This document shows, one piece after another, positions 28,745 through 56,767 of a stretch of DNA of 64,000 nt. The first letter of the stretch is position 1, and every line of letters starts with the position of its first letter. Origin of the DNA: Candidatus Falkowbacteria bacterium (GTDB lineage: Bacteria; Patescibacteriota; Patescibacteriia; UBA11705; JABHMO01); the NCBI GenBank assembly GCA_018674305.1, contig JABHAL010000015.1:30683-94682 (forward strand). Direction: 5' to 3'. Both the position numbers and the translations under genes were made by a program. Below the pieces are notes generated by a model. It ran no database searches. It saw only the letters and a program-made list of their open reading frames with translations, and was not told the DNA's origin.

Positions 28745-28745
28745 A

Positions 28746-31463
28746 CTATTCATCTTTTTTACAACACACAACATACACTACCAACATACCCAGTGCAATT
28801 ATTGATATTAATCCTCCAAAATAAAACACATTTTGTGGCCAAAATTCCAAAACAACTAATCTTGTTGGGCCAAGTACTGAATCATCCAATTGCCAACTAT
28901 TAGCATAACCATTTGCCAATCTAACCGGCGCTAAATTACCTTCATCACGAGAAAATACTTTTGTGAAAAAGTTTTGTTCTTTATCAGTTTCATATGTTTT
29001 TATAGTCCAACCTGAGTTATAACCATTGTTAAAAACTAAACTATAAATACCATCCAACTTAGGAACCTCTACAACATACTTGCCAGGATTTAGTTTAGCA
29101 AATTCTAAACCTTGATCATAATCTGGTTGAATATTTTCTTGATTATAAACAAAAAGCAAATTGTTCACAGGTATAGCATATATTGAATGTCCTTCAGCAT
29201 TCTTAATATCTACAGAATAAATATCTTTTTCAAGATTAAATTTACCAAAGTCAATCCAATCACCAGACATAACAACATCACTTCTAATTACTTTATCGTC
29301 AAGACTTAAATATACAGGTGCTTCTAAACCTGCTTCATTCAAATTAAAATATATTTCATACTCACCCGTATGAACAATCTCTAATTTGTAATCATCCAAA
29401 ACAACATTTTCCGTGTTGTAATTTACTTCTCTTTTTAGTCTAGCTTGTTCCTCTGAATCACTGATTTCTGTAGCCTCTTTTAATTCTTTATTGAACTCTG
29501 CTAATTTATCAATATCTGTATTATTAGCAATTACTTCAACTGCATATTCTCCATACTGACCAGCTTCAGAAAAATGAATTACAGGTTTAAAGTTATTATT
29601 ATATTCAGAAATATCCAAGTAAGAAATCAAAGAACCCATATCACCATCAATAACAATATCTTTATTAGCAATGTACAAAAACGGTGTAAAATCATTATAT
29701 TCGTATAAATCAATATTCTCACTTAAACTCAGCAAGTTCAAATCCTTATTATTCATTAAATATTCTTTTTGTTGTGAAATATTCCAAATTCTAGCACAAC
29801 TAAAATGCGGTACTATATCCGTGCGGAAATAAACATACTGAATATTTAAAATCTGTAACATTTTTGAATACAACTCTGAATTTTTTGCTTGACATTGAAA
29901 ATCTCGAAAACCTTGCAACAACTTCTCACCCATTTTATTACTAAATCCTTGATCAACCACAACATTAAATGGTGCAAATATTTGATTCACATCAACACCC
30001 TGGCCATCTAACTGATAATCATTTGGTACAAACGCTGGTGAAAAAGAAATTGGTTGAGCCAGAACCTTGGCACCTTCAAGATTCTCATCTAGATATTCAT
30101 AAACTTCTTCCAAATCTGGATTTAACTGATAAACATCAATATGATCTTTATTTTTTTTAGTTAAAACCTCTCGTCCTATATCTCCTAAATACCAGTATGG
30201 CAAACTCCAGACAAGCAAAATTATAATCAAAACACTTTTAGCAATTTTCTTATTTACCTTTTTTAAATCTTCAAAAATCAAAGTAAATCCGTACGCAAAA
30301 ATTATTGTTAAACAAAACAACACACCAGGAATATAATGCTGCGCAGATCTGAACATAGCATAAGCAGAAAAATGTTGTACTAACCAAAGCACAAAATCAC
30401 CAAATGGCGGGTTTCCACTTGTAGCAAAAATCATGAAGATAACAAATGTAAATAACCAAAATAAAATATCCTTATTAAACTTCTTTTTTATCGTGACATA
30501 AAGAAAGGTTCCAGCCAAAGACAAATACATTACAGCATACCAAATTGGCAAAATCACATTTGACATCGTAGCTGTAAACATGTGTCTATCAAAAAAACCA
30601 GTACCGACTAACATCTGCCAAACCTTTGGAGCAGACTGAATATTTTTCAAAGCAATACCAGCAAAACCTTTCTGAGCTTTCAAGCCTGATAAATAACCAA
30701 AATCAGCAATCATTGGCACAATCCAATAAGCGTTTAAAAACAAGGAAAAAACTCCAACAAGTATTAATCGTTTAATAATCTGCCAATCTTTTTTCAGCCA
30801 AGCATACCAACTACAGTATAAACAAAACATTACTACCACAAATACAAATTGTTGAATTGAGATCATCAAGGCAGTAATTAGAACTGCTGAAGTTAGCAAA
30901 TATATCTTGCGAGAACTGTTAATCAAATAATGGAACGACAAAAAACACCATGGCCAAAGAGCATAGGCCAAAAACTGACTCATAGCTCCACCAATAAATT
31001 CAGAAAACAGGAATGGTGAAAACCCATACAATAAACCACCAACAAAAGACATTAAACCAAGATTTGCTTCCAATTTATAGTGTTTAAGCAGCCTTCTTAA
31101 ACACAGATACATACCAAAAGCTGCTAAAGTCATTGTAAAAATCAATAAAAACTTAGAAAAGTAATTACCATCCAAATCAAGCAAAGAAAATGGCCCAACC
31201 AAAATAATTCTTAACAATTTCACTGGCAAGGTCAAAGACATAGCAGAAAAACCTAAAACAGAATCTTTCCAAAGATAAAAGGAAGAATAAACTTGATTAG
31301 ACAGAAACGAAGCCATGTTCGGTACTGACCAATCCCAATTATGTCCAACTGTACCCACAGTGCTAAGTAATTTTCTTATCGAAAAAACAGCCATTAGCAC
31401 ATATAAACAAAAGGCTGACACAATTTGAACTTTATTTTGTAGAAACAATTTTTTCAATTTCAT
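28746..31463 (-). CDS. Large (~900 aa) polytopic membrane protein with big extracytoplasmic C-terminal domain (GT-C / YfhO-like candidate)
   Basis: About 14 N-terminal TM helices then a ~450-aa soluble region; start uncertain (31463 or 31496). Confidence 0.4.
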   Translation of the reverse strand: MKLKKLFLQNKVQIVSAFCLYVLMAVFSIRKLLSTVGTVGHNWDWSVPNMASFLSNQVYSSFYLWKDSVLGFSAMSLTLPVKLLRIILVGPFSLLDLDGNYFSKFLLIFTMTLAAFGMYLCLRRLLKHYKLEANLGLMSFVGGLLYGFSPFLFSEFIGGAMSQFLAYALWPWCFLSFHYLINSSRKIYLLTSAVLITALMISIQQFVFVVVMFCLYCSWYAWLKKDWQIIKRLILVGVFSLFLNAYWIVPMIADFGYLSGLKAQKGFAGIALKNIQSAPKVWQMLVGTGFFDRHMFTATMSNVILPIWYAVMYLSLAGTFLYVTIKKKFNKDILFWLFTFVIFMIFATSGNPPFGDFVLWLVQHFSAYAMFRSAQHYIPGVLFCLTIIFAYGFTLIFEDLKKVNKKIAKSVLIIILLVWSLPYWYLGDIGREVLTKKNKDHIDVYQLNPDLEEVYEYLDENLEGAKVLAQPISFSPAFVPNDYQLDGQGVDVNQIFAPFNVVVDQGFSNKMGEKLLQGFRDFQCQAKNSELYSKMLQILNIQYVYFRTDIVPHFSCARIWNISQQKEYLMNNKDLNLLSLSENIDLYEYNDFTPFLYIANKDIVIDGDMGSLISYLDISEYNNNFKPVIHFSEAGQYGEYAVEVIANNTDIDKLAEFNKELKEATEISDSEEQARLKREVNYNTENVVLDDYKLEIVHTGEYEIYFNLNEAGLEAPVYLSLDDKVIRSDVVMSGDWIDFGKFNLEKDIYSVDIKNAEGHSIYAIPVNNLLFVYNQENIQPDYDQGLEFAKLNPGKYVVEVPKLDGIYSLVFNNGYNSGWTIKTYETDKEQNFFTKVFSRDEGNLAPVRLANGYANSWQLDDSVLGPTRLVVLEFWPQNVFYFGGLISIIALGMLVVYVVCCKKDE

Positions 31464-33942: not shown

Positions 33943-35004
33943 TTACTGATTCTCAGGAGTTACAGCTTTTTTTTGCGAATCTGTAAATCGTTTAATAAAA
34001 TAAAAAATTGATTTCTTTTTATATAATCCTTGTTCAATAAACAGTTGCTGATCAGATAGTTTACGATTTTTTTGGATCCTTCTTCTTTTTTTGTAATTAG
34101 CTGGCAGATGAAGAAAAAACCACATAATTCCTTTCAAAATATTAATACCTGAAGTCCAATTACCCTTAAAAAGTAAATAAAAGGCCAAACCATTCCACAA
34201 AAAAATATGTTTAGGCAAAATTCTGACTAAATATTTAAAAGATAAGTTTTTGTACAAAGTTAAAATGTAATTTTTGCAACCATGGAACCGAACCAGTTTG
34301 TTATTAAACTTTTTGTCAGTAATATCCTTAGTAGCTGAATAATGATGATACACAACTGACTCTGGACAAAAAACAACCTTATAATTTTTTAACCAACAAC
34401 GCCAACCAAGGTCAGTTTCTTCCACAAAAATAAAATAGTCTTCATCAAATCCTTCTGCAGCCTCAAATGCCTGGCGAGTAATAAACATTCCAGCTGACTT
34501 GGCTGCTAATATTTCTTTGACCTGATCATATTGTCCATTATCCGGTTCACCATACTCAGCAATTGAAATTAAAAAACCTAGCGAACCTAAATACTCTCCA
34601 ACATAATCAATGCTCTTTTTATCTTTTAAGAATAATAATTTGCACTGCAATGCGCCAACCTTTTCATCTTGTTCAAAAACTTTATCAGCATTGATAAGCC
34701 AGTCAGCTGTTACTTCTGTATCATTGTCCAAAAATCCATAAACCTGACCTGTGGCTATTTTCACACCCTCATTTCTAGCCTTAGCAGGACCAAAGTTTTT
34801 TTCAAGTTGAACAAATTTAATTTTTGCTAGATTTTTAACAAAAGTCTGCTCAATATGCTGCACGCTACCATCAGTAGAATTATTATCAACAATTATGATT
34901 TTAAAATTCTGATAATTACTATTTAAAACAGAACGTACCGTTCTTTCCAAGTACTCTTTTCCATTAAAGTTAACAATTACAATTGAATATTTAATTTCTC
35001 TCAT
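33943..35004 (-). CDS. Glycosyltransferase family 2
   Basis: YSIVIVNFNGKEYLERTVRSV...IIIVDNNSTDGS, DxD. Confidence 0.75.
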   Translation of the reverse strand: MREIKYSIVIVNFNGKEYLERTVRSVLNSNYQNFKIIIVDNNSTDGSVQHIEQTFVKNLAKIKFVQLEKNFGPAKARNEGVKIATGQVYGFLDNDTEVTADWLINADKVFEQDEKVGALQCKLLFLKDKKSIDYVGEYLGSLGFLISIAEYGEPDNGQYDQVKEILAAKSAGMFITRQAFEAAEGFDEDYFIFVEETDLGWRCWLKNYKVVFCPESVVYHHYSATKDITDKKFNNKLVRFHGCKNYILTLYKNLSFKYLVRILPKHIFLWNGLAFYLLFKGNWTSGINILKGIMWFFLHLPANYKKRRRIQKNRKLSDQQLFIEQGLYKKKSIFYFIKRFTDSQKKAVTPENQ

Positions 35005-35875
35005 AATTTTTATAAAATGACATATTTAGATCCTGATATTTATTTTCTGCAGAAAGTGGAATGCATTTAGCATCAACCTGGTATGAATAATTTGCTTTTT
35101 CAAAAATTTGCAGAAATGAACTCAGTTTAGACTTGTCCTCATTAATATTATGATGGTATTCAATACCATATTTTTCAACCATACCAACTTGACCTGCTTG
35201 CTCCAAATCCTGCAAAACCTCATTCTCTGCCCCTTCAATATCCATTTTTAAATAATCAATTTTTGATAATTTCTGATTACTGATAAAATTGGCAAATGAA
35301 ACACAACTCACCTCAATCTTATCACTTGAAAACTGTTGGTGTTCAGTCATTCTCTCCTTTTTTGTACTCATAACTAAAGAACCTGGAGTTTTCTTGTCAA
35401 CATAAAAATCAATTTTCCCATCATGATCAGATATTGCCCAATTAAATAGATAAACATCTTTTAATTTGTTTTTTTCAACATTATATTTCAACAATTCAAA
35501 TGTAGCTGGATCAGGCTCAAAACTATAAATACTACTGTTAGGATATAACCACTTGAAAAATAGTGTGGCCATACCAATATTTGCACCGCAATCAAAAATC
35601 ACTGGCCGATCATTTTTTGTAGAAAAATAGTATTCATTGCGATAAAAAATATCTTCATACAAAAATTTTATATTCTTGTATTCAAAAGCTTTGAAATGCA
35701 AGCCAAAAATTTTCTCAGTATTAAACTTAAACCAAGTAGCATAAGTTAAATATTTGAAATTTATCCTTAACCAGGCACACAAGATTCTAAATTTATTCCT
35801 ACCTGAATGACCTGAACTTGTCAAATAGGCAAAATTTCTAATGGCAATATAAGTTGTAGGAAATAATCTTCTCAT
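34991..35875 (-). CDS. FkbM-family SAM-dependent methyltransferase
   Basis: VIFDCGANIGMATLFF motif. Confidence 0.7.
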   Translation of the reverse strand: MRRLFPTTYIAIRNFAYLTSSGHSGRNKFRILCAWLRINFKYLTYATWFKFNTEKIFGLHFKAFEYKNIKFLYEDIFYRNEYYFSTKNDRPVIFDCGANIGMATLFFKWLYPNSSIYSFEPDPATFELLKYNVEKNKLKDVYLFNWAISDHDGKIDFYVDKKTPGSLVMSTKKERMTEHQQFSSDKIEVSCVSFANFISNQKLSKIDYLKMDIEGAENEVLQDLEQAGQVGMVEKYGIEYHHNINEDKSKLSSFLQIFEKANYSYQVDAKCIPLSAENKYQDLNMSFYKNYERN

Positions 35876-35917: not shown

Positions 35918-37024
35918 TTAACTTTCATTAACTTTCTTCTTATCCTCTTCAGTCACATTCATAGCAAAATCTTTATTCACAAACTTAGCAATCTTCTTTA
36001 AAGGTTTATAAAAATTGTAATGAAAAATTGAATTCAAAGTACTGGCAAAAATACCTCGCATACCAGCTGGAAAACTTAGAATCTGTTTTTCCCAAATACT
36101 GTCACACTTTTCACAATTTTTATTGTAACTAAGATAAGTATTATTCAACATTGATTCACGAAAAGCCACCATCTGATCACTGTTCCAAAGTTGCTTTAAG
36201 TTATGCTCTGGGAATTTACCAAGTTTATTATCACCAAAAAAATCAGAGGTGCAGGCGATCAAATGACCATCCCATTGAATATGCATTGAACTCCACAGGT
36301 ATGAACATGGTGAAAACTCTTTACCTAATTCTTTGGCTTCAAATTTATCTGTATCACTGAGAAAATTGCCCCAAGTACTTGGTCTTCGCATTTGAATACA
36401 GTCAATTGGCAAATCCTTGAAATTTTGCATAAACTGTTCTCTGTTTTCTTGATAAATCTTGTCCCCTTCATCATCCATAATCATAACTTGCAAATCAGCA
36501 ACAGTTTTTGCACCAAGTTCTTTTTTTATTTTCAAAAAGTTGATCACATTTTCTAATGATTTTTCAAAATTAGCATTTACCCTAACTTTTTCATAAACTT
36601 CCTTGGTTACACCATCAAAAAAAAAATTTATCCAGTCTAAATCTGCTTCTAAAAGTTTGCGAGAAATTTCTGGTGTTAGTAAAGTACAATTTGTAGAAAT
36701 ATAAACTGCAATTTTATTATCCTTGGCATACTTAACCATTTCAGGAAACTTTGGATGCAAAAGTGATTCACCAGAAATACATAAGATTATAAACGAAACA
36801 AATGGCTTCGCTTCATCAATAATCTTTTTGTATAAATCAAAATCCATATAGCCAGGATTTGGTTGACCAATAATTGAATTTGGACACATGATACATTTCA
36901 GATTACAAACATTAGTTGGCTCAATCCAAAGAGCGGTTGGCAAATATTTCAATCTGGTCTTTTTTCGTTTATAACTCCAATGCGCTCGTGGCATGGCTAT
37001 TAAATTGTTTATTTTTTTAATCAT
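35918..37024 (-). CDS. Radical SAM / SPASM-domain protein (paralogue 1). Start moved to the ATG at 37024, which overlaps the upstream stop (ATGA)
   Basis: EPTNVCNLKCIMCPN CxxxCxxC; C-terminal Cys cluster (CSYLW...WDGHLIACTSDF...CEKCD). Confidence 0.75.
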   Translation of the reverse strand: MIKKINNLIAMPRAHWSYKRKKTRLKYLPTALWIEPTNVCNLKCIMCPNSIIGQPNPGYMDFDLYKKIIDEAKPFVSFIILCISGESLLHPKFPEMVKYAKDNKIAVYISTNCTLLTPEISRKLLEADLDWINFFFDGVTKEVYEKVRVNANFEKSLENVINFLKIKKELGAKTVADLQVMIMDDEGDKIYQENREQFMQNFKDLPIDCIQMRRPSTWGNFLSDTDKFEAKELGKEFSPCSYLWSSMHIQWDGHLIACTSDFFGDNKLGKFPEHNLKQLWNSDQMVAFRESMLNNTYLSYNKNCEKCDSIWEKQILSFPAGMRGIFASTLNSIFHYNFYKPLKKIAKFVNKDFAMNVTEEDKKKVNES

Positions 37025-38396
37025 TGTCTTGATGTATCTCCTCTGGTTAATAATGATAAACCTGTTTTTATAGAATATTTTAGATTTTCCCAAGAAGAAA
37101 TGTCTTGAAAAAATCTGCGAATCAAATAACTTGGTCGGAAATAAAATTTAAAATATGCTTTTTTACGAAAATCTTCTAATTCTTGCAAGTTAAAACCTTC
37201 TGGCACATAAAATGGCCATGAACCATGAAAGCCTTCGCCAAGTTCGCCTCGCGCATATTGATCAATTGTATCGATTGAAATTTTATTTTCAGACTTAGCA
37301 GTTTCAAATAATGCAGCACCTGGTAATGGCAAGGAAATATGCACGCCAACAATATTGTATCTAGCAGTTTTATAAAACTGCATTGTTTTTTCAATATCTT
37401 CTCTAGTTTCTGTTGGAAAACCAAGCATTAGAAAAGCATTAACATTAACCCTATTTTTGTTACATAACTTTGCAGCTTTGACAATTGCTTCTGTACTTAA
37501 ATTTTTCTTAATAATTTCATTTCTAATTCGTTCACTACCAGATTCAACTCCAAGCGTTACTTCAAGGCAACCAGCCTTTTTCATTAATTTTACAATATCT
37601 TCATCAAGCATATCTGCCCGAGTAATAGCCGTCCAGGTAATTTTCATTCCTCTCTTTAATATTTCCTGACAAATACCAATAATATGATCCTTTTTCAAGG
37701 TTAAAGTATCATCAGCAAACATAAAGAAAGTTTCACCTTGTTTATAAATCTCTTCCATTTCATCCAAGATTTTCATAGGATCACGAAAGCGCATTTTGTC
37801 ACTTAGTGCTGGCCGAGAACAGAAGACACATTTAAACGGACAACCTCGACTAGAAAAAATATGTGCACCTTTTTTGTACTTTACATGTTGAAGTTTTTCT
37901 CTTGCTGGAAATGGCAAAGAATCCAAATCCTGCACAGGAACTCCTTGATAAAATTTCTCCACAGGCTGATTAGTTTTCATTTTGTTAATAATTGCTGGCA
38001 AAACAGTTTCTGCTTCACCAGCAATACCAACATCAAATAAATGAGCAAAGCGATTGATAAAATCATTATCAGCACTGATATGTGCTCCACCCAATATAAG
38101 TTTAATTTCTGGGAAATTTTGCTTTATAAATTCAGCAGCCTGCACAGTGCCGCGAAGATTCGCTGTCATGGTAGTAAATCCAATTACTCGCGGCCGTTTT
38201 TCAGTAATTATATTTTTTAATCGGTTTAAATCAATATTTTCCGCTCCAATATCTAAGATCTCTGCTGAAACATGTTCTTTTTCCAAACTACTGGCCAAAT
38301 ACAAAACTCCCAGTGGCGGATGTTCCACATCCATAGTTTCTGGTCCACCCTCTTTATTAAAATAAATCGGCGGGTAAATGAATAGTATATCTAGCA
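37021..38396 (-). CDS. B12-binding (class B) radical SAM enzyme. Start moved to MLDILFIYPP; the upstream 5' extension is GC-rich non-coding
   Basis: Cobalamin-binding N-terminal domain; SSRGCPFKCVFCS. Confidence 0.8.
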
Positions 38397-38513
38397 TAAT
38401 TTTTCTTTTCCGTCTATAGAGCCACCCTGGGGGTTTTGGGGTGAAATTGAGCCCATGAAAGAACCCCAAAGCATACTATTTGTTACGGCGAATTTGAAAC
38501 CCCAACACTTTTT

Positions 38514-38539
38514 GTTACTTTTTGGTGTCAAAAAGTAAC
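38514..38539 (-). terminator. Hairpin (gttacttttt-ggtgtc-aaaaagtaac) downstream of the SPASM gene
   Basis: Perfect 10-bp inverted repeat in the 80-nt gap that breaks the operon. Confidence 0.45.
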
Positions 38540-38548
38540 AAAGTTTTA

Positions 38549-39667
38549 TTAAAACTTAAACTTACACATAGCACAACATCTAAAACATGCCGGGGTGATG
38601 TGCTTGTTTTTAATTAACTCTCTAAATCGCTTGGCTTTCTTAGACTCCCAAGCTTGTTTAATAGTGCCCTCTTTCACATTACCAATAATTATCCCCTGAC
38701 AAAGTTCAATATCTCCATTCTGTCGGATAAATATTTGCCAAAATGGTGAATCGCAATATGATTTATCAGATAAGGGTACACCTTCATAATATTTTTGCAA
38801 ATCACCAGGATCTTGTACATTAACTTGGAACTTGGCCTTCTTCTGCATCTTTTCCAAACCAATAGTTTTGCTTTTTAACTTTTCTATCTGCTCTTTTTCA
38901 AAATAATTTTGTTGTTCAATTGGCATGCCCCAAATATCCTTGCCAGATTTGAACTTATCAGCAAAAATATCATTTTTTCTTTTTAATCCTTCTGGATAAT
39001 AGAAAAATTGACTAACTGACCACTCATCAATCCCCTGCGCTGCTCCAATATTATAAACAGTATCAAAATCATCCAAAGATTCTCGAGAAATTACAGTTCT
39101 GAGATGAATATTAGGAAAATTTTTCCAACCTCTTTGCTTTTTGATTTCTTTAATCCCTGAAAGAGCTTGATCAAACACATTATCAGCTCCACGCACTTTA
39201 TTATGCGTCTTTGGTAGTCCACTATCTAAAGAGACGGCTAAAAACTTAAGCTTTGAATCAATAATCTCCTTAGCTTTAGCTTTTAAAATCGTTCCATTGG
39301 TTGTAATTGAAGTTACCAGTCGATTTTTATTAGCATGTTTAATTACTTCAAAAATATTTGGATAAAGTAGTGGTTCGCCACCAACTAATTGAATAGTTGA
39401 GCCAAAATCCTTGGCTTCATCCAAAGCTTTCTTCACTAATTCAACATCTAAGTCAATTTGATTGCTTTTTTCCAAAAATTTACGCCGTGATTCACTAACA
39501 TGACACATTGGACAGTTCAAATTGCATCTTTCAGTGATAAAAAAAGTTATCTGCACCGGAAATTCAAATTTATAGTACTTTTCTTTTTTAAAATAGTCCT
39601 TTTTTAAATAATTAAAAAAAGTTTTTGGGTTAAATAGTGATATTAATATCTTTTTCCTTATATTCAT
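38549..39667 (-). CDS. Radical SAM / SPASM-domain protein (paralogue 2)
   Basis: ITERCNLNCPMCHV; C-terminal CDSPFW...NGDIELCQGI...CFRCCAMC. Confidence 0.75.
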   Translation of the reverse strand: MNIRKKILISLFNPKTFFNYLKKDYFKKEKYYKFEFPVQITFFITERCNLNCPMCHVSESRRKFLEKSNQIDLDVELVKKALDEAKDFGSTIQLVGGEPLLYPNIFEVIKHANKNRLVTSITTNGTILKAKAKEIIDSKLKFLAVSLDSGLPKTHNKVRGADNVFDQALSGIKEIKKQRGWKNFPNIHLRTVISRESLDDFDTVYNIGAAQGIDEWSVSQFFYYPEGLKRKNDIFADKFKSGKDIWGMPIEQQNYFEKEQIEKLKSKTIGLEKMQKKAKFQVNVQDPGDLQKYYEGVPLSDKSYCDSPFWQIFIRQNGDIELCQGIIIGNVKEGTIKQAWESKKAKRFRELIKNKHITPACFRCCAMCKFKF

Positions 39668-39669
39668 AA

Positions 39670-40560
39670 TTATTTTCTTCCAAAAATTAAATTCAACTGC
39701 GCTGCAATCTTAGACTTATTAACAAAGTCTTTCTCTTCCATCTTCCACCATTTTTCATTACTTAAATATTTATTTAACAGAATTTGAGAAATTTTTACTA
39801 AATGTCCATTATAAATAACCTGTTTCTTATCAAAGTCATGACTTTTAAACTTTTTTTCTAAATCTTCTTCAGCATAATGCCTTAAATGACCAACCTTTTT
39901 GTCATTATAATAGTACATTGGCCAAAGAAATAGCCAAACTCTTTTGTATGTATTTGGTACAACAATATAAATAACATCATTACTAACTCGACACAGTTCT
40001 GAGATTGCCTTCTGATCATCAAACAGATGTTCCAGAACTGAAATTGAAGCTGTAAAATCAATTGCTTTACTTTTCAAAGGTAACTTCTCTACTGTAGCCA
40101 CAAAAAAGAAACATTTATCACCAACACCTTGCTGCTCAGCATATTTACTGGCCTTGATCATTCCTTGCAACGAAATATCAGTTCCAAGACAGTGTCCATA
40201 TTTCTTGGCTTGCTCAATTACTGTATAAGCAGTACCACCAACACCAAAATCACAAAAAACTTTATTCTCTTTTTCAATTTGATTTTCAGAAGCCAAATCC
40301 AATCGCTTGATCATGCTTTTGCGCCAATTTTCTAATTTATATTCAGGCAATTCTGTATACTCTTTATCAAAATATTTACTTTGTGCATCTAATTGTGATT
40401 TTTGATCATCTTTTACATCTGAAGGCAAAAAAACTGGTACTCCCTCAACTACTTCATATTCCCGCTGACAACTTTTACAAATTAATTTGCTATCAAAAGA
40501 TAACTGACCACCACAGTCAACGCACTGAAAATAATGAATAAATTTTTCTATATTCTGCAT
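39670..40560 (-). CDS. Class I SAM-dependent methyltransferase with N-terminal Trm112-like zinc ribbon
   Basis: CVDCGGQL...CKSCQ ribbon; FGVGGTAYT motif I. Confidence 0.65.
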   Translation of the reverse strand: MQNIEKFIHYFQCVDCGGQLSFDSKLICKSCQREYEVVEGVPVFLPSDVKDDQKSQLDAQSKYFDKEYTELPEYKLENWRKSMIKRLDLASENQIEKENKVFCDFGVGGTAYTVIEQAKKYGHCLGTDISLQGMIKASKYAEQQGVGDKCFFFVATVEKLPLKSKAIDFTASISVLEHLFDDQKAISELCRVSNDVIYIVVPNTYKRVWLFLWPMYYYNDKKVGHLRHYAEEDLEKKFKSHDFDKKQVIYNGHLVKISQILLNKYLSNEKWWKMEEKDFVNKSKIAAQLNLIFGRK

Positions 40561-40649: not shown

Positions 40650-41669
40650 CTACTTACTAACCCACCACGGTGATTTGTAATGAAAATTATACTGACAATT
40701 AACACATATTGGAATATGTCCAAACTCTTTTTTAAGATGATTTTGTCTAATCAATTCTAATCTTTGTCCTCCCCAAACTTCCATGATCGTTTGACTGTTA
40801 ATATCACCTAACTCAACTTTAGCTTCATAATCATTACAACAAAGTGGTACTTTGCCATCCCAATTAATAACCATATCCATCCAAAGCAACCGACAAGGAT
40901 CTCGTAGCAAACTTTTTTTGTAAATAAATTCTTTACTCTCAATATCACCAGTCCAATTGTGAATCAATGAAACTGAAACACCATCAACCAAACCTTTCCA
41001 TTCCTGAATATACCTTTTCACTTCATGTTTATTATCATCACTTTCCACAAAACTTAAATATATTTTTGTTGTAGAGTTTTTATCATTACGAAGCCGCACA
41101 AAATTCAAAATATTTTTCTTTGTGCTATTAAAATCCAGATTGCATCTTATCTTTTTGTAAGTTTCTTCACTAGCAGCATCAAAGGAGATATAAACTTCAT
41201 CAATGCCAGATTCAAGCAACTCTCTAGCTTTATCAGAGTTTAATAATGAAGCATTAGTATTGGTTGTTACTCTTTTCAAACCTGCTTGTTTGGCATATTG
41301 AATTCTTTCAATAAAATCCTTATCCATTAATGGTTCGCCAAAACCATACACAGTTACATAATCAATACTGTTCCTTGCACATTGATCAATAATCTTTTTA
41401 TACAAATCCAGAGACATAAAGCCAACCTTTCTTTGCATTTTTCCGTGTGGGCAAAACGAACAGTTAGCATTGCAAGCATTAGTATTTTCAATCATCACTC
41501 GATGAGGTTTCTTTGCAAACTTTTCTATTTTCTTTTTTATTTCCTTTTGATACTTAGCCTGATAGATTTTACTATTTACAATAAATTCACGAGACAAAAT
41601 AAAAGATATAAACCTTTTCAAGGCTCTATTATATATTATTAAATCAAACATTAAATCACGTTTACGCAT
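40650..41669 (-). CDS. Radical SAM / SPASM-domain protein (paralogue 3)
   Basis: ENTNACNANCSFCPHG; C-terminal CRLLW...WDGKVPLCCNDY...CVNCQ. Confidence 0.75.
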   Translation of the reverse strand: MRKRDLMFDLIIYNRALKRFISFILSREFIVNSKIYQAKYQKEIKKKIEKFAKKPHRVMIENTNACNANCSFCPHGKMQRKVGFMSLDLYKKIIDQCARNSIDYVTVYGFGEPLMDKDFIERIQYAKQAGLKRVTTNTNASLLNSDKARELLESGIDEVYISFDAASEETYKKIRCNLDFNSTKKNILNFVRLRNDKNSTTKIYLSFVESDDNKHEVKRYIQEWKGLVDGVSVSLIHNWTGDIESKEFIYKKSLLRDPCRLLWMDMVINWDGKVPLCCNDYEAKVELGDINSQTIMEVWGGQRLELIRQNHLKKEFGHIPICVNCQYNFHYKSPWWVSK

Positions 41670-41671: not shown

Positions 41672-43645
41672 TTATTCGTAGTAAGCTTTTTCAATATGAG
41701 CGCCATTCTGTTCACTAAACCTTTCTTCAGCATATGGCCTACAATTTGCAGTCAACCGGTCTAATTCTTCTTTATTATTTTTTAAATATAATATTTTTTC
41801 TTTAACATTTTCTAATGATGGATCAATCAAAAACCCAACTTCAGGTGTTATCATAAATGGCAAACAACCTCTATTCGATGAAATTAACGGACGACCAGAT
41901 GAAAATGTTTCTAATACAACTCTTGCAAAACCTTCTTCATACTGTGATGGCAAAGCTACAGCATCGGCAGAGCCATAATATGGTGGTACTTCTTCTGGCG
42001 ACTTTCTACCAACAGCAAAAATATTTGACTGCTTCTTACCTAATTCTTTGATCTCTTCTTCCATTGGCCCATCACCAACAAATACAAAATTAATATCTAT
42101 TTCTTCTTTGGCGATATCAAGCAAAACCTTTGCACCTTTCTTTTCAATCAAACGACCAACAAAGGTTATTGTAAATCGATCAGGAATACCAATCTGTTTT
42201 CTAGCTTCTTGTTTATTGTAAGGTTTGAAATTATCCTGATCACACCATTGAATATATATATCCAAAATTTCAGCCGGTAATTTGGCTTTTAGTAAATCCT
42301 GACGAGATGGTTCTTCCAAACAGAAAACCATAGTAAATCTTTTCAAAATCCAATGACAAACCTTTGTTAACCATCCTTTTCCAAAACCATAAATCGCATG
42401 CATACTACCAATCAAGCGAACTTTGAAAAGTCGAGATAATAAATTGGCACAAAACGCTGCTGCAAAACCATGAGCATGGATCACTTGCCATTTGGCTTTT
42501 TTACCTGCAAACAATCGATAGAAAAAAGTAAACACAAGCAGTCCTGGTACTAAATAAGCAAATTGTAGCGGGGCAAACTTTTCAAATCGATGAAAAAGAG
42601 TTTTGCCAAACCATGGGATACGATAAATCGTTAAATTTTCAGCAGTTTCTTTGAATTTTGCTTTGACTCTGGTTGTCAGAGGTTTATAAGTAATAATTGT
42701 CACTTGCCAATTCTGTTTAAGAAGATAACTTTGCAAATCTGCAATATGAGTTTCCACACCACCAGTATTTGGCAATAAAAATGGTGATAAAATTAATACT
42801 TTTTTTGGCTCTTTTGATTCCATATTATTTGTTTTTTTATGTCTGAAAATAAATTTAAGTCCAACTAAAAAGCGCAATCCATACATTCCCAAAGTTGAAA
42901 TCGGCTTAATCAATAACTTTTTCCATTTCCCTTTTTCAATAAAAATCCCCAAGAACCGATAGTACAAACCGAGCTGTTTTTGCAAATCAGGATCAGTCAT
43001 CCCCCACTTGGCAATATATTTATCAAAACTTTTTGCATAATACCCCTTTTTCTGTAAATAACTTTTTAATTCTATTTCTGACTCATTATGATCAAGTGCT
43101 GTTTTAATCAGAGCTGTTTTTCCTTTTTGTCGAAGTTTTTTATCCAAATCCCAATCTTCTGGTCCTGTGAAGTTCAGATCAAAACCACCAACTTCTTGAA
43201 AAGTTTGTTTTTTTATAAATCTTGCACAGTCAACAACTGTACCATCATAAAAACTTCTTTCAAATCGCCTGATTTGACTTAGGAACTTATCACCCATAAC
43301 AACCTCAGGCACATACAAACCAACAATTGCCGTATCTTTTTTTATTAACTCGACACATTCTGTAATTACTTCTGGTCGAAGGATCATATCAGCATCCAAA
43401 TACATAAAATACTCACCTCTGGACTGATCAACACCAAAATTTCGCTGCGCTGATCGTTCTGGACCTTGATTAAAAACTTTTTCAGTGTACTGTTTCGCAA
43501 TTGCAGCGGTTTTATCATCAGAATTATTATCAACCACAATAATTTCAATTAAATGCTTGGGATAAGTTTGATCTCTTATTGAACGAAGACAGTTCTCAAT
43601 ATGTTTTTCTTCATTCTTGGTTGTGATTATAGCTGAGACAAACAT
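41672..43645 (-). CDS. Bifunctional GT2 (N-terminal) – GT1 (C-terminal) glycosyltransferase fusion
   Basis: IITTKNEEKHI...IIVVDNNSDDKT at the N-terminus; GT-B EX7E-like region (GRPLISSNRGCLPFMI) at the C-terminus. Confidence 0.7.
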   Translation of the reverse strand: MFVSAIITTKNEEKHIENCLRSIRDQTYPKHLIEIIVVDNNSDDKTAAIAKQYTEKVFNQGPERSAQRNFGVDQSRGEYFMYLDADMILRPEVITECVELIKKDTAIVGLYVPEVVMGDKFLSQIRRFERSFYDGTVVDCARFIKKQTFQEVGGFDLNFTGPEDWDLDKKLRQKGKTALIKTALDHNESEIELKSYLQKKGYYAKSFDKYIAKWGMTDPDLQKQLGLYYRFLGIFIEKGKWKKLLIKPISTLGMYGLRFLVGLKFIFRHKKTNNMESKEPKKVLILSPFLLPNTGGVETHIADLQSYLLKQNWQVTIITYKPLTTRVKAKFKETAENLTIYRIPWFGKTLFHRFEKFAPLQFAYLVPGLLVFTFFYRLFAGKKAKWQVIHAHGFAAAFCANLLSRLFKVRLIGSMHAIYGFGKGWLTKVCHWILKRFTMVFCLEEPSRQDLLKAKLPAEILDIYIQWCDQDNFKPYNKQEARKQIGIPDRFTITFVGRLIEKKGAKVLLDIAKEEIDINFVFVGDGPMEEEIKELGKKQSNIFAVGRKSPEEVPPYYGSADAVALPSQYEEGFARVVLETFSSGRPLISSNRGCLPFMITPEVGFLIDPSLENVKEKILYLKNNKEELDRLTANCRPYAEERFSEQNGAHIEKAYYE

Positions 43646-43652: not shown

Positions 43653-45113
43653 TTATTTGCGATTTTTAAAATCAGCCAAATGACTAAACACCTTTTTTGC
43701 TGAAGTTAATAAATATTTAATATCATCCATACTTCTTATTGAAAATAACTTTCGAACAATAAATTGAGGGCTCATCCAAGCTTTATATAGTTGCTGTGTG
43801 AAGTTTTTCACATCCTCTGTTGTTAATTCGCTTTTCATGACCTGTTCACGCTGATCAAACCGATCGTAATCTTTGAATCTAAGTAGATCGTTTTCCTTAC
43901 AGTATTTATAAAGTGGTGTGCCGGGATATGGAATTACAACTGTGGCCTGAAGAGTGTCAACAAGACCGCCCTGAAATAGTTTTTTGGCCAAATCGATAGT
44001 ACGCTGAGCATCGACCTTGGTTTCCCATGGATATCCAATCATGGCCGTAATATGAGGTTCAAGTCCGGCCTCTTTACAAATTTTTAGGCCGGGTTCAATT
44101 TCCTCTATTTTTAAATTTTTATCAATTTTATCTAAAGTTACTTGATTCGCAGATTCTAATCCGAATAAAACAAATCTAAAACCAGCTTTTTTCATTAAGT
44201 GCCATATTTTTATATCATCAATTCCATTAATCCGCATATTGCAACTCATGACCACCTTTTTATTTAAGCCACTCTCTATCATACCATTGCAAAAATCAAT
44301 TAGCCAATCGCCAATTGGTAAACTGCCAGAATCCTCCATGATTTCTTTAACACCCAGAGAAACTAAATGTTCAACTTCATCCAAAGCTTGCTCAGCGGTT
44401 CTGGTTCTAAAAGATTTACCAGGGAAAAAAGTAGTCCAAGAACAAAATGTGCATCTTCCCCACCAACAATCTCGACCACTCATCATATAGGAACCTGGTG
44501 TATGTTTGAAATTACCATTCTTTTCTGAATAAAGTTTCCATTTGGTTAATTCTCGATCAATCATTGGTAAATTAGTCAATTTATTCTCATGTAAATTGTA
44601 TTCTCCACTATTTGTGACTTTCCTTTCTTCTTTGAAATAAATACCAGGCGTTAGTGAAGCACCTTTACTTAAATGATTAGCAATGCCAAGAAGCATAAAA
44701 TCAAAATCACCACCAACGATAACATAATCAACTAAGCATTTTTCAAAAGATTCCAAAGGTCGAGCTGTTGCATGGTCTCCCATTAAAACAATTTTTGAAT
44801 CTGGTAAGCTTTTTTTTATTTCATCAATTATTTGCCAATGTTTTTTCACAACTGGTGTTTTGGTTTCAATAGCAATCACATCCGGCTTTTCAGCAATCAA
44901 TCTCATTAGCCAGTCATTATAACTTAACTCTTCAGCAATTCCATCATCCCAAAAAACCTCAAACCCCTTTGACTGTAACAAAGTTCCTGCATACGCAGGA
45001 ATCATTGGGTAAATATAGGTTGGACTATTGAACCATTGAAATTGCCGATTCTGAGTCAGTAAGGGTACGCCCTTGGGCGATTCTAATGGAGGAAAGGATA
45101 TTGAAATTTTCAT
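43653..45113 (-). CDS. B12-binding radical SAM enzyme with unusual Cx4CxxC cluster spacing
   Basis: Cobalamin-binding N-terminal domain (VIAIETKTPVVKK...); SGRDCWWGRCTFCSW. Confidence 0.7.
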   Translation of the reverse strand: MKISISFPPLESPKGVPLLTQNRQFQWFNSPTYIYPMIPAYAGTLLQSKGFEVFWDDGIAEELSYNDWLMRLIAEKPDVIAIETKTPVVKKHWQIIDEIKKSLPDSKIVLMGDHATARPLESFEKCLVDYVIVGGDFDFMLLGIANHLSKGASLTPGIYFKEERKVTNSGEYNLHENKLTNLPMIDRELTKWKLYSEKNGNFKHTPGSYMMSGRDCWWGRCTFCSWTTFFPGKSFRTRTAEQALDEVEHLVSLGVKEIMEDSGSLPIGDWLIDFCNGMIESGLNKKVVMSCNMRINGIDDIKIWHLMKKAGFRFVLFGLESANQVTLDKIDKNLKIEEIEPGLKICKEAGLEPHITAMIGYPWETKVDAQRTIDLAKKLFQGGLVDTLQATVVIPYPGTPLYKYCKENDLLRFKDYDRFDQREQVMKSELTTEDVKNFTQQLYKAWMSPQFIVRKLFSIRSMDDIKYLLTSAKKVFSHLADFKNRK

Positions 45114-45124: not shown

Positions 45125-46096
45125 TTATCGTAAACTGATTTTTATTTGTTTTTTAAATAAACCTTTTATAAAATTACTTCCGTAAGCAATATGGGTTCCG
45201 AAAATATATGGCAAAGCCACAAATGCTACTGATCTTTTTTCATGCTTTCTAATATCAAAAAAAGCTTTAATTAACGCTAGTACATAAATAAATAAACCTG
45301 CAATATATGGCCATAGTAGCCATTCAATTTGCAAACTGACTATCAAACCAACTACAATATAAACTAGAAATAAACTTGGTAAGAAATACTTAAACCTCCT
45401 TGAAGTTTTAGGGAATTTTCGAGCAAAATGACCTCTATGCAAACCATAAGCGCCAACCTGTTTCATATGTCGCCAAAAACCTTCGCGACGATGATGATAA
45501 ACTAAAGCTTCTGGTAAATACAGTATTTTTTTACCAGTTTTTTTGATCAGCTCCAAACAGAACAGAGTATCCTCTCCTGGCCAATAATTACTATCAAAAC
45601 CACCAACCATTTCAAAGACATTTTTTCTGACTGACAAATTAACACTTGGCCAATCGTCAACAAATCTTTTTTCACCAATTGGCACATATCTTTCCGGACA
45701 CCCGCCAGACAAAGGACTTAAAAAAACTGCGCCAGAAACTTTTTGTTGAAAACTATTGTGCTTAGGTGTAATCGCTGGACCACCTACGGCAACAATTTCC
45801 TGATCAGCAAACTCAGCATCTAACTTTTTAAGGAAATCAATGTTTGGATAAGCATCATCATCAATAAAAATTAAAACTTCTCCCTGAGCTTCTTTAATTG
45901 CCAAACTTCGTTTCATTGCTGGACCTCCAGGGCCTGTTGCTACTTGCTTTGTTTTTGTCCAGGTTTCTGAACTGGATTCGTCAGGGAAAATTATAATTTC
46001 ATAATCATCGCGGTTAATTTTAAGGATCTTTGGAATTGATTCCCTAATATACTCATTGATTTTCTTAACCGGAACTATGAAGCTATATTTTATCAT
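45125..46096 (-). CDS. Glycosyltransferase family 2 with C-terminal TM helices
   Basis: FIVPVKKINEYI...IFIDDDAYP; 2-3 C-terminal TM helices. Confidence 0.7.
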   Translation of the reverse strand: MIKYSFIVPVKKINEYIRESIPKILKINRDDYEIIIFPDESSSETWTKTKQVATGPGGPAMKRSLAIKEAQGEVLIFIDDDAYPNIDFLKKLDAEFADQEIVAVGGPAITPKHNSFQQKVSGAVFLSPLSGGCPERYVPIGEKRFVDDWPSVNLSVRKNVFEMVGGFDSNYWPGEDTLFCLELIKKTGKKILYLPEALVYHHRREGFWRHMKQVGAYGLHRGHFARKFPKTSRRFKYFLPSLFLVYIVVGLIVSLQIEWLLWPYIAGLFIYVLALIKAFFDIRKHEKRSVAFVALPYIFGTHIAYGSNFIKGLFKKQIKISLR

Positions 46097-51767: not shown

Positions 51768-52289
51768 TCACTCTGAATCGTACGAAACTAAATGTTTTAA
51801 ATTATATTTTTCAAACTTTTCTCGTCCACCAAGAAACGGAAGGTCAACAATTAAACTTACACCGATAATATCACCACCTAATTTTTCAACCAATTCAATT
51901 GAAGCGCCCAATGTTCCTCCGGTAGCTAATAAATCGTCAACGATTAGAATCTTTTCACCAGGTTTAATTGTGTCTTCATGCATTGTCACTGTATCTGGGC
52001 CATATTCTTTCATGTAAGAAGTTTCAACAGTTTTGTATGGCAACTTACCCTTCTTGCGAACTAAACACACGCCAACGCCCAAATTATAAGCCATAGGTGT
52101 CCCCAAAAGAAATCCTCGTGCATCAAGAACCACAATTTTATCAATCTTTTCATTTTTAAATGGCTCAATCATTTTATCAATCACATAACGAAAAGTTTCG
52201 CCATCTTCAAGCAGAGTGGTTATGTCTTTAAAATTAACACCAGCAATTGGCCAGTCAGGAACTTCGCGGATTTTAGATTTAATGTCCAT
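51768..52289 (-). CDS. apt: Adenine phosphoribosyltransferase
   Basis: PRPP-binding ILIVDDLLATGGT and full-length Apt similarity. Confidence 0.9.
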   Translation of the reverse strand: MDIKSKIREVPDWPIAGVNFKDITTLLEDGETFRYVIDKMIEPFKNEKIDKIVVLDARGFLLGTPMAYNLGVGVCLVRKKGKLPYKTVETSYMKEYGPDTVTMHEDTIKPGEKILIVDDLLATGGTLGASIELVEKLGGDIIGVSLIVDLPFLGGREKFEKYNLKHLVSYDSE

Positions 52290-55028: not shown

Positions 55029-55032
55029 CTTT

Positions 55033-56764: not shown

Positions 56765-56767
56765 AAA

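Follow-up and report, generated by a model that had tools for sequence, protein, structure and literature searches.

A conserved pair of Twitch-type and B12-binding radical SAM enzymes predicted to act in a surface-glycan locus of Candidatus Falkowbacteria

We identified a pair of overlapping genes, B1 and S1, that appears to form the conserved core of a surface-glycan locus in which radical SAM (rSAM) enzymes with Twitch or B12-binding domains would tailor sugars, a reading that we favor with moderate confidence. The window analyzed is a stretch of 64,000 nt from Candidatus Falkowbacteria (CPR/Patescibacteria; GCA_018674305.1, JABHAL010000015.1:30,683-94,682, forward strand), and coordinates are given as window positions. 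The locus spans ~25.5-52 kb, with more glycosyltransferase (GT) genes as far as ~62 kb. All of the genes of the cluster are carried by the minus strand, as are the junction and the spacer described below. Six rSAM genes (S1, S2, S3, B1, B2, and B3) are interleaved with glycosyltransferase genes, and two SAM methyltransferases are also encoded, one of class I (MT) and one of the FkbM family.

The glycan context of the window comprises GT2, GT4, UGDH, UXS, Wzx, PMT_2, and polytopic membrane proteins. Pfam matches identified GT2a (45125-46096), a UDP-glucose 6-dehydrogenase (UGDH, 46100-47389), a UDP-glucuronate-decarboxylase-like SDR (UXS, 47386-48333), another GT2 (48330-49289), a Wzx-type flippase (49276-50544), a PNP_UDP_1 nucleosidase/phosphorylase (50545-51324), and a phosphoribosyltransferase (51768-52289), as well as a 657-aa GT2-GT4/GT1 fusion glycosyltransferase (41672-43645) and the family-2 glycosyltransferase GT2b (33943-35004). 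The FkbM-family methyltransferase gene (34991-35875; Methyltransf_21, 80.8 bits; TIGR01444, 113.7 bits, above cut-off) is an insertion between S1 and GT2b in the lineage of the window. B3 is flanked by P916 (28746-31496) and P572 (25540-27258), two polytopic membrane proteins with 10-11 membrane segments in a hydropathy scan. A Pfam search of both returned no match, a GT-C_AftD domain (PF11847) is present on a distant P916 homolog in the related locus L092, and the two proteins are probably GT-C-like transferases or polymerases. It was also observed that purine-nucleoside-phosphorylase-family and phosphoribosyltransferase genes adjoin the cluster both in the window and in locus L006. As 5'-deoxyadenosine is a by-product of radical SAM enzymes, these neighbors would fit with its salvage. 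At gathering thresholds, Rfam detected two tRNAs and nothing else in the whole window. Promoter and terminator consensus sites between 33.8 and 51.8 kb were no commoner than in shuffled sequence, so internal transcription units are not definable by such a scan.

S1 (35918-37024) encodes a 368-aa rSAM enzyme with a BtrN-like Twitch domain (Pfam Radical_SAM and SPASM), and B1 (37021-38397) a 458-aa rSAM enzyme with a B12-binding domain (PF02310, 65.6 bits; Radical_SAM, PF04055, 97.3 bits). A first-pass annotation of this DNA had proposed that the B1 stop overlaps an S1 start at 37024 in an ATGA arrangement, and direct reading of the sequence confirmed this: the plus strand at 37021-37024 is TCAT, or ATGA on the coding strand, with the B1 stop TGA at 37023-37021 and the S1 start ATG at 37024-37022. 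The mechanical ORF of S1 opens upstream, at TTG 37093. The reassigned ATG is backed by homolog N-termini (33 S1 homologs, 358-371 aa long, begin to align at MIKKINNL), by gene calls that NCBI and JGI made independently for identical contigs, both with a 368-aa S1 and the same 4-bp overlap with B1, and by orthologous junctions, where the S1 start falls at the homologous position. The B1 boundary placed at 38396 had to be corrected by one base; the true start is ATG 38397-38395, and the L089 ortholog of B1 aligns over residues 1-458 to 1-458.

An ATGA overlap is by itself routine in this compact genome and is no proof of coupling: in the gene calls, 4-bp overlaps occur at 3 of the 17 cluster junctions and overlaps of any size at 6. 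It is the conservation of the B1-S1 overlap across orthologous loci, not the overlap itself, that goes beyond chance. The junction between the B12-rSAM gene and S1 lies at -4, -8, -14, or -17 nt in 8/11 distinct orthologous loci (-4 also in L012/L092, L089, and L100; -8 in L006 and L090), and the other three are spaced +4 to +10 nt. The tight B1-S1 linkage put forward earlier, a stop/start overlap on one strand, holds and is kept among orthologs, with overlaps of 4-17 bp. B1 and S1 are probably co-transcribed and translationally coupled; given an AGGAG motif 14 nt 5' of the S1 ATG, independent initiation of S1 is also possible.

The rSAM motif of S1 is C40/C44/C47 and the cysteines of its auxiliary cluster are C240, C258, C304, and C307; these seven are the only invariant cysteines across 34 S1 homologs. 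The family profile has BtrN as its best PDB match (E=3e-24), in an alignment that covers the core and also the Twitch segment, the latter paired with the BtrN stretch bearing its cluster ligands; the lipid enzyme GDGT-MAS is also matched, in the rSAM core. An AF2 model of S1 (pLDDT 91.6) was compared with the PDB using Foldseek and has a SPASM/Twitch radical SAM fold, with SuiB marginally above BtrN (TM 0.75 on target, 17% identity). Sugar- and peptide-acting relatives were not separated by this search, SuiB, BtrN, DesII, and BlsE all scoring E ~1e-11. The wider S1 family includes 633 representatives (50%-identity clusters) at E<=1e-30, and we know of none with a known function. Of note, a CDP-alcohol phosphatidyltransferase domain is fused to one S1 homolog (P0076), the only such case in its clade (41% identical), and DegT-type aminotransferase genes adjoin S1 homologs in L089 and L093. 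Loci L014 and L017, for which anammox "ladderane" rSAM clusters were considered, contain many S1-, S2-, and B-like genes at an identity of only 23-40%.

The two other proteins of this type are S2 (38549-39667, 372 aa) and S3 (40650-41669, 339 aa), the latter a sister family to S1. The invariant cysteines of the S2 family are C48/C52/C55, C305, C323, C361, and C364, with C365 in ~90% of sequences; an insertion of ~55 aa separates the core from the Twitch domain, and the best PDB match is the cytosylglucuronate decarboxylase BlsE (E=1e-13). Those of the S3 family are C66/C70/C73, C259, C277, C278, C322, and C325, and the best PDB match is BtrN (E=7e-11). The 151-nt spacer between S2 and B1 (38398-38548) contains a hairpin of 15 perfectly paired bp (38508-38543), a stretch rich in G+C (38421-38454), and an ORF of 27 codons (38474-38391). 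We rejected the hairpin and the G+C-rich stretch as repeat elements, as neither has a second copy within the window, and a permissive Rfam scan of the spacer gave chance-level matches only, none near the gathering score. In L006, L007, L090, and L091, S2 and B1 overlap or abut, which makes the spacer specific to the lineage of the window.

S1, S2, and S3 had been classed as SPASM enzymes in the first-pass annotation. A full SPASM domain has seven or eight cysteines, with a CxxCx5Cx3C block for the second cluster. All three proteins match Radical_SAM and SPASM in Pfam (PF13186 above threshold), and the CxxxCxxC motif is invariant within each family. Conserved auxiliary cysteines number four in S1, four in S2 (plus the partial C365), and five in S3, spaced C-x17-C-x37/43/45-C-x2-C in the three families. 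After the Cx2C, the S1 and S3 family alignments have no further conserved cysteine, and that of S2 has one that is partly conserved. A Twitch domain is a shortened SPASM domain whose three or four cysteines bind a single auxiliary cluster, such as the four-Cys cluster of BtrN (PMC9012708). This check places the proteins in the Twitch class (BtrN/MoaA type) and not in the full SPASM class. S1, S2, and S3 are therefore predicted to be Twitch-type radical SAM enzymes with one auxiliary cluster.

Pairwise alignment gave 29% identity over 267 aa for S1 and S3 (hhalign of the families, E=2e-62) and 25-30% for S1 and S2 (E=4e-30). The three proteins are homologous and of one architecture at 25-30% identity, above the line of ~20% set for their relatedness. 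The same annotation had taken them for a paralogous expansion, that is, one SPASM rSAM gene duplicated twice within the locus to serve three similar successive steps; the common architecture would agree with this, as would the position of each of these rSAM genes in the window, at +2 or -4 nt after a transferase gene. Yet the three families separate cleanly. Median scores within families are 413, 256, and 298 bits, versus 50-132 bits across families, and only 1 of 88 sequences scores equally well outside its own family as inside. Each protein has its own orthologs in other CPR lineages at 35-65% identity (S3 also in Omnitrophota), both S2 and S3 are missing from several orthologous loci (L009, L012/L092, L098, and L100), and S2 differs in its nearest solved relative and its insertion. 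The expansion was not borne out, and recent duplication in the locus is extremely unlikely; the three proteins appear instead to be anciently diverged, distinct subfamilies.

The B12-domain enzymes are also three. In B1, the CxxxCxxC motif is C186/C190/C193, the top NCBIfam matches (ApyD, HpnJ, and BchE) all fall short of the equivalog cut-off, and the best PDB match is AprD4 (6fd2, E=3e-22); its orthologs, at 33-53% identity, adjoin S1. The AprD4 structure is that of a dehydratase, not a methylase. B2 (43653-45113, 486 aa) is an HpnJ-like rSAM enzyme (Radical_SAM, 53.7 bits) with a weak B12-binding-like N-terminal domain (28.2 bits vs the Pfam gathering score of 32.1); its orthologs are 47-65% identical, and its best solved match is also AprD4. 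B3 (27161-28774, 537 aa; B12-binding, 69.8 bits; Radical_SAM, 92.8 bits) has orthologs at 37-42% identity in L009, L012/L092, L090, L091, and L100. By their predicted domains, B1 and B3 fit the class B radical SAM layout, an N-terminal B12-binding domain followed by the rSAM core. MT (39670-40560, 296 aa; Pfam Methyltransf_11/25/31) has an N-terminal Cys4 zinc-ribbon-like segment with a weak Trm112-like match in NCBIfam. The sole NCBIfam model passing its cut-off in the cluster is the FkbM subfamily-domain model; no rSAM, GT, or class-I methyltransferase of the cluster lies above a curated equivalog cut-off, so that their reactions are not assignable by homology.

The HpnJ matches (TIGR03471) bear on the possibility that the rSAM enzymes tailor glycolipid head groups, acting on a lipid-bound sugar or cyclitol, as HpnI/HpnJ/HpnK do on hopanoids, and not on a polysaccharide repeat. 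B1 and B2 score 150.5 and 149.6 bits against this sugar ring-contraction enzyme (PMC9204698), the BtrN substrate is a cyclitol (PMC9012708), the S1 profile reaches GDGT-MAS in the rSAM core, and P0076 carries a CDP-alcohol phosphatidyltransferase domain. However, both scores are far short of the cut-off of 577.6, the fusion is one case in its clade, the window has no hopanoid or other lipid-synthesis genes, and the Wzx flippase, the many GTs, and the GT-C-like proteins indicate an oligo- or polysaccharide product. We consider head-group tailoring unlikely, though the least unlikely of the alternative functions.

Very unlikely, in our view, is a role in RiPP maturation, in which a ribosomal peptide would be the substrate of the rSAM enzymes and would be decorated by the glycosyltransferases, as in mycofactocin. 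Peptide maturases are common among SPASM/Twitch and B12 rSAM enzymes, and one of them, SuiB, is the top Foldseek match of S1. Far below the respective cut-offs, the RiPP enzyme ApyD is the top NCBIfam match of B1, and the mycofactocin glycosyltransferase MftF is matched by GT2a, GT2b, and the GT2 half of the fusion. The 27-codon ORF lies just 5' of B1, but in the lineage-specific spacer, which is missing from orthologous loci with overlapping S2 and B1 genes; no conserved short gene was found among the gene calls of related clusters. In addition, Pfam detected no PqqD-like recognition domain in S1, S2, or S3, MftC scores 61.8 bits vs a cut-off of 265, and the context consists mostly of sugar-nucleotide, GT, flippase, and GT-C-like genes.

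Synteny was counted in 15 S1-ortholog loci with sufficient flank. A B12-rSAM gene lies within 6 kb of the S1 ortholog in all 15 (directly upstream in 10), and GT or sugar-nucleotide genes do so in 14. GT2b (49-59% identity), of all neighbors of S1 the best conserved, adjoins the S1 ortholog, on either side, in nearly all orthologous loci; it lies ~1.4 kb downstream in L100, and none was detected near S1 in L011 and L089. S2 is directly upstream of B1 in 6/6 loci with S2, and S3 and GT4 are adjacent in every orthologous locus with S3. In L007 and L091, S3 lies between two separate genes that correspond to the two halves of the GT2-GT4/GT1 fusion; in L089 these two genes are neighbors. The order GT2, S3, GT4, S2, B1, then S1 and GT2b in either order, is found in L006, L007, L090, L091, and L099, and a minimal order (MT, B1, S1, GT2b, B3, and P916) in L009, L012/L092, and L100. 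The cluster type is widespread among small-genome CPR bacteria.

These patterns revise the "SPASM rSAM plus group-transfer enzyme" unit of the first-pass annotation. The idea of such a unit is supported by the adjacency of S1 with GT2b and of S3 with GT4, and by P0382, a GT4-Twitch rSAM fusion protein; the particular pairs proposed are not conserved. MT and S2 are adjacent in the window only: elsewhere the MT ortholog directly precedes B1 (L009, L089, L098, and L100) or is fused to it (L012/L092; 768 aa, 41% identity to MT and 40% to B1). The rSAM genes had also been placed upstream of the modifying enzymes; along the direction of transcription, the transferases precede them instead (the GT2-GT4 fusion to S3 at +2 nt, MT to S2 at +2 nt, and B1 to S1 at -4 nt), with gaps of 89 nt 3' of S3 and 151 nt 3' of S2. 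The conserved pairs are S1 with GT2b, S3 with GT4, S2 with B1, and MT with B1.

The most likely role of these enzymes is the radical tailoring of sugars in surface-glycan assembly, their substrates and chemistry being deduced from relatives and context. The locus would supply UDP-glucuronate and UDP-xylose, GT2 and GT4 enzymes would build a glycan, and the Wzx-type transporter would flip it and probably hand it to the GT-C-like membrane enzymes. Each Twitch enzyme may act on the glycosyl residue handled by the neighboring glycosyltransferase, abstracting hydrogen from one of the sugar carbons and then passing the electron to the auxiliary cluster of the enzyme; a carbinol would be oxidized to a ketone, as by BtrN, or a variant of the reaction would lead to epimerization or decarboxylation. 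The B12-domain enzymes could next C-methylate or rearrange the sugars, like GenK, GenD1, MoeK5, and HpnJ. As they are probably co-transcribed and translationally coupled, B1 and S1 would be produced jointly and work on a common intermediate.

The nearest solved relatives (BtrN for S1 and S3, BlsE for S2, and AprD4 for B1 and B2) are all sugar- or cyclitol-modifying, at a low identity of about 15-25%, and with SuiB marginally above BtrN, the fold alone does not separate sugar from peptide enzymes. As BtrN and AprD4, and GenK/GenD1 by analogy, serve in aminoglycoside biosynthesis, the question arises of whether the cluster makes a diffusible pseudo-oligosaccharide and not a surface glycan; the DegT-type aminotransferase genes beside S1 homologs would be in keeping with this. 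We regard it as highly improbable: neither a 2-deoxy-scyllo-inosose synthase nor an inositol-phosphate synthase-like gene is present in the window, the membrane proteins (Wzx, GT-C-like, and PMT_2) indicate that the product is exported on a lipid carrier, and the cluster type is widespread in CPR bacteria with small genomes.

Sugar tailoring for a surface glycan might be extended, tentatively and with rather less than even confidence, to a radical glycan assembly line, in which GTs alternate with rSAM enzymes, of Twitch type and with B12 domains, that edit unactivated C-H positions of lipid-linked oligosaccharide sugars. The edits (oxidation, epimerization, decarboxylation, and C-methylation) would be carried out by physical GT-rSAM and MT-rSAM units, as P0382 and the L012/L092 fusions suggest, and would yield a heavily C-modified glycan on the cell surface, of a kind typical of CPR bacteria. 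A literature search found no description of this cluster type, the nearest being uncharacterized radical SAM genes in glycan loci, and none of radical SAM chemistry on polymer-stage glycans. CPR/Patescibacteria account for a large part of bacterial diversity, and episymbiosis is mediated by their cell surfaces; to our knowledge, the chemistry of these surfaces is almost unknown. The locus type, which recurs across CPR lineages, would place six radical SAM enzymes in a surface-glycan pathway. If they edit sugars, known bacterial glycan chemistry would be enlarged, and relatives of BtrN, GenK, and AprD4 would become available as new catalysts for anaerobic sugar tailoring; the fusions and fixed neighbors point to concrete enzyme pairs (S1/GT2b, MT/B1, and S2/B1).

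Among known systems, BtrN (PDB 4M7T), the 2-deoxy-scyllo-inosamine dehydrogenase of the butirosin pathway, is the founding Twitch-domain radical SAM enzyme. S1 and S3 share with it the CxxxCxxC core and a C-terminal four-Cys domain for one auxiliary [4Fe-4S] cluster, with closely similar Cys spacing. They differ in being longer by 90-120 aa (S1, 368 aa; BtrN, 250-270), with N- and C-terminal helical extensions, and in their ~17-25% identity to it. Because the window has glycosyltransferases and a flippase in place of butirosin/aminocyclitol genes, their substrate is almost certainly other than that of BtrN. S1 was rejected as a BtrN ortholog (DOIA dehydrogenase) at 17% identity and with no aminocyclitol pathway genes in the window. 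BlsE (blasticidin S; PDB 7VOB), the best solved match of S2, is a radical SAM enzyme whose substrate is a sugar derived from glucuronic acid, and UDP-glucuronate is what the UDP-glucose dehydrogenase encoded by the locus makes. In contrast, the S2 match is confined to the radical SAM core (residues 44-218), TIGR04466 is absent among the S2 matches listed (S3, 45 bits vs a cut-off of 400), and the cluster has no nucleoside-antibiotic genes.

The mycofactocin system (MftC rSAM-SPASM, MftF GT2, and MftM methyltransferase) likewise combines a SPASM-type rSAM enzyme, a GT2, and a SAM methyltransferase. GT2a is the best MftF match (100 bits) and MT weakly matches MftM; however, MftC, MftF, and MftM are all below cut-off, the locus has no MftA/MftB-like peptide or RRE gene, and its rSAM enzymes are of the Twitch type, not two-cluster SPASM. 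B1 and B2 were rejected as HpnJ, at ~150 bits vs 577.6 and with no hopanoid genes in the window. Carbohydrate-directed cobalamin rSAM precedents are the sugar C-methylases GenK/GenD1 and MoeK5 and the ring-contracting HpnJ (PMC9204698; reactions also in PMC4340712). With these and the diol dehydratase AprD4, B1, B2 (weakly), and B3 share a B12-binding-type N-terminal domain and an rSAM core, although all family scores for B1 and B2 are far below the cut-offs. Those precedents belong to antibiotic or hopanoid pathways, whereas here three such enzymes are encoded in what appears to be a primary surface-glycan locus.

Every gene of the region is carried on the minus strand. According to Pfam domain assignments, with membrane segments located by a hydropathy scan, the transcription order begins with a phosphoribosyltransferase (52289-51768), a PNP_UDP_1 nucleosidase/phosphorylase (51324-50545), a Wzx-type flippase (50544-49276), a family-2 glycosyltransferase (GT2; 49289-48330), a UXS-like SDR (48333-47386), a UDP-glucose dehydrogenase (47389-46100) and a further GT2 (46096-45125). 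The radical SAM (rSAM) part follows, with B2, an HpnJ-like rSAM (45113-43653), a GT2-GT4 fusion (43645-41672), the rSAM S3 (41669-40650), a class-I methyltransferase, MT (40560-39670), the rSAM S2 (39667-38549), a 151-nt spacer (38398-38548), the B12-domain rSAM B1 (38397-37021), the rSAM S1 (37024-35918), an FkbM methyltransferase (35875-34991) and the GT2 termed GT2b (35004-33943). The order ends with a P-loop protein (33932-32595), a GT4 (32592-31432), the polytopic protein P916 (31496-28746), B3, a B12-domain rSAM (28774-27161), and the polytopic protein P572 (27258-25540). B3 is sandwiched between P916 and P572 and overlaps both, neither membrane protein having a Pfam match, and the B3-P916 pair was found again in the related loci L009, L012/L092, and L100. 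The P-loop protein (445 aa), with an N-terminal thymidylate-kinase/AAA-like domain recognized by weak matches only and a C-terminal half of ~250 aa, could be a candidate sugar/glycan kinase. A tRNA-Trp gene (53751-53825) divides the rSAM part from minus-strand glycan genes (53871-61867; two genes each for GT4 and GT2 enzymes, plus one for an NAD-dependent epimerase/dehydratase and one for a PMT_2 (GT-C) membrane protein), which extend the locus to ~62 kb. The same sequence is present in MAG GCA_018665965.1 (identical contig) and in Saanich Inlet metagenomes.

S1, S2, and S3, annotated in the first pass as three SPASM paralogues, are indeed homologous and share one architecture, with pairwise identities of 29-30%, and so show neither the identity of less than ~20% nor the differing domain architectures that would have refuted the first-pass reading. 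S1 and S3 are 29% identical over 267 aa (BLAST E=3e-41), and their family profiles align over the full length (hhalign E=2e-62); S1 and S2 are 30% identical over 169 aa (BLAST E=3e-17; hhalign E=4e-30), with a ~55-aa insertion in S2 ahead of the C-terminal domain, and S2 and S3 are 29% identical over 127 aa (BLAST E=6e-11). Beyond the CxxxCxxC motif, family alignments retain only C240, C258, C304, and C307 in S1 and only C259, C277, C278, C322, and C325 in S3, while S2 retains C305, C323, C361, and C364, with C365 in ~90% of sequences. Twitch domains are by definition truncated SPASM domains that bind one cluster, and the auxiliary cluster of BtrN has four Cys ligands (PMC9012708); the S1 profile aligns with BtrN through this auxiliary-cluster segment. 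All three proteins still score above the threshold of the Pfam SPASM model. The label is thus true of the domain family but misleading as to cluster content, as the four or five conserved Cys residues match a single-auxiliary-cluster Twitch rather than a full SPASM domain.

The homology does not reflect a local paralogous expansion, as had been proposed. Median scores within the three families (413, 256, and 298 bits) exceeded those across families (50-132 bits), and only one of 88 sequences scored equally well outside its own family as inside. Each family has orthologues in other CPR groups (S3 additionally in Omnitrophota), and several orthologous loci have neither S2 nor S3. Judged from these sequence comparisons, the three enzymes therefore represent an old divergence followed by modular gain and loss.

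The ATGA overlap between B1 and S1 was confirmed by direct reading of the coding strand (37024-37021), where the B1 stop TGA overlaps the S1 start ATG. Mechanical ORFs open further upstream, at TTG codons 37093 (S1) and 38469 (B1). The starts were nevertheless fixed at 37024 and 38397 (not 38396, one base off, as first given for B1), since homologue N-termini align from both positions (residues 1-458 of the L089 B1 orthologue align with residues 1-458 of B1), the NCBI and JGI gene annotations of identical contigs list B1 at 458 aa and S1 at 368 aa, and the S1 start sits at the homologous position in orthologous junctions. Taken alone, such an overlap is ordinary and no more than expected by chance (4-bp overlaps at 3/17 cluster junctions by gene calls, overlaps of any size at 6/17), but its conservation is non-random. 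Among loci that carry an S1 orthologue with >=50% identity, gathered from genomes, metagenomes, and contig look-ups, the nearest upstream gene of S1 encodes a B12-domain rSAM in 13 of 19 distinct loci, and such a gene lies within 6 kb in all 15 loci with enough flank. This junction measures -4 nt in the window, L012/L092, L089, and L100, -8 nt in L006 and L090, -14 nt in L097, -17 nt in L103, and +4 to +10 nt in L095/96, L009, and L099. Co-expression of B1 and S1 is therefore well supported. We infer that the two genes may also be translationally coupled, but S1 could initiate independently: an AGGAG motif lies 14 nt ahead of its ATG, and good Shine-Dalgarno sequences occur at several of the orthologous junctions. 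The pairing is real but not exclusive; GT2b, with or without an MT, lies between B1 and S1 in L007 and L091.

The related loci follow two layouts. The full one (L006, L007, L090, L091, and L099) comprises GT2, S3, GT4, S2, and B1, followed by S1 and GT2b, whose order varies, and the minimal one (L009, L012/L092, and L100) comprises MT, B1, S1, GT2b, B3, and P916; the window is a hybrid of both (GT2-GT4 fusion, S3, MT, S2, B1, S1, FkbM, GT2b). The proposed pairing of rSAM and group-transfer enzymes gains support as a general idea from steady adjacencies and fusions, whereas the MT-S2 pair occurs in this window only. GT2b, 49-59% identical and as conserved as S1, lies directly beside the S1 orthologue, on either side, in nearly all loci; in L100 it lies ~1.4 kb downstream of S1, and none was detected close to S1 in L011 or L089. 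S3-GT4 is likewise a steady adjacency, S2 is immediately upstream of B1 in 6/6 S2-bearing loci, and MT holds this position in L009, L089, L098, and L100. MT and B1 are fused in a 768-aa protein (L012 7671-9977; L092 7695-10001; 41% and 40% identical to the window MT and B1, respectively), whose gene immediately precedes that of the S1 orthologue, the two overlapping by 4 bp. Within the wider S1 family, P0382 (731 aa) has an N-terminal GT4 glycosyltransferase fused to a Twitch rSAM, and P0076 (599 aa; L094 85-1884) is an S1 homologue with a C-terminal CDP-alcohol phosphatidyltransferase domain; a polysaccharide deacetylase gene comes after the latter. This last fusion and the HpnJ-like scores are what speaks for an HpnI/J/K-like glycolipid head-group pathway, which we regard as rather improbable.

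The spacer between S2 and B1 contains an A+T-rich hairpin with a perfect 15-bp stem (38508-38543) just past the S2 stop, an unusually G+C-rich stretch (38421-38454), and a 27-codon ORF (38474-38391, MLWGSFMGSISPQNPQGGSIDGKEKLC) whose TAG stop overlaps the B1 start region. Such an ORF next to rSAM genes could be read as the precursor gene of a RiPP that these enzymes mature. This is unlikely, as S2 and B1 overlap without any spacer in orthologous loci, no precursor gene is conserved in the related loci, and no RRE domain was detected by Pfam in S1, S2, or S3.

The nearest solved relatives are BtrN for S1 (family profile, E=3e-24) and S3 (E=7e-11), the cytosylglucuronate decarboxylase BlsE for S2 (E=1e-13), and AprD4 for B1 (E=3e-22) and B2 (E=2e-9); BtrN, BlsE, and AprD4 all act on sugars or cyclitols. 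None of the cluster rSAM, GT, or class-I MT proteins reached an NCBIfam equivalog cut-off. The genes around them supply UDP-GlcA and UDP-Xyl and encode many glycosyltransferases, the flippase, and GT-C-like polytopic proteins (PF11847, GT-C_AftD, matches a distant P916 homologue in L092). The flippase and GT-C context makes an aminoglycoside-like small molecule an unlikely product, as does the lack of cyclitol synthase genes in the window. The nucleosidase and phosphoribosyltransferase genes that flank the cluster also occur together inside the L006 cluster (3990-5247). 5'-Deoxyadenosine is an inhibitory by-product of rSAM enzymes, and these two proteins may salvage it, or MTA, for the six rSAM enzymes. 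Since the relatives, the glycan gene context, and this possible salvage role fit together, radical tailoring of sugars during surface-glycan assembly is the favoured prediction. Each Twitch enzyme would act on the sugar residue that its neighbouring glycosyltransferase installs or uses, presumably on a nucleotide sugar or lipid-linked glycan, and B1 and S1 would be co-produced to work on a shared intermediate. S1 and S3 might catalyze a BtrN-like two-electron oxidation or epimerization, S2 a decarboxylation-type reaction, and the B enzymes C-methylation or rearrangement, for which GenK/GenD1, MoeK5, and HpnJ are sugar-methylating or -rearranging cobalamin-type precedents (PMC9204698; PMC4340712).

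Judged by sequence, the cluster enzymes form new subfamilies within known superfamilies. The wider S1 family comprises 633 representatives (50% identity, E<=1e-30), none of them characterized. In Brocadiaceae (L014) and Scalinduaceae (L017), eight or nine genes arrayed in tandem at positions ~5-20 kb of each locus have their best matches in S1, S2, B1, or B3 (23-40% identity), and these anammox arrays may be related to the rSAM clusters that were at one time suggested to synthesize ladderane lipids. Our literature search turned up no report of this arrangement at the cluster level, in which glycosyltransferase genes alternate with genes for Twitch and B12-domain rSAM enzymes and MT-B12rSAM and GT-Twitch fusions also occur. 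The interest of this conserved multi-rSAM glycan locus is moderate, and it offers clear enzyme pairs for testing. S1 homologues have DegT-type aminotransferase genes as direct neighbours in L089 (11070-13708), where genes for an oxidoreductase and an acetyltransferase follow, and in L093 (8877-9965). These neighbours recall the logic of BtrN and its aminotransferase, in which a ketone is made and then aminated.
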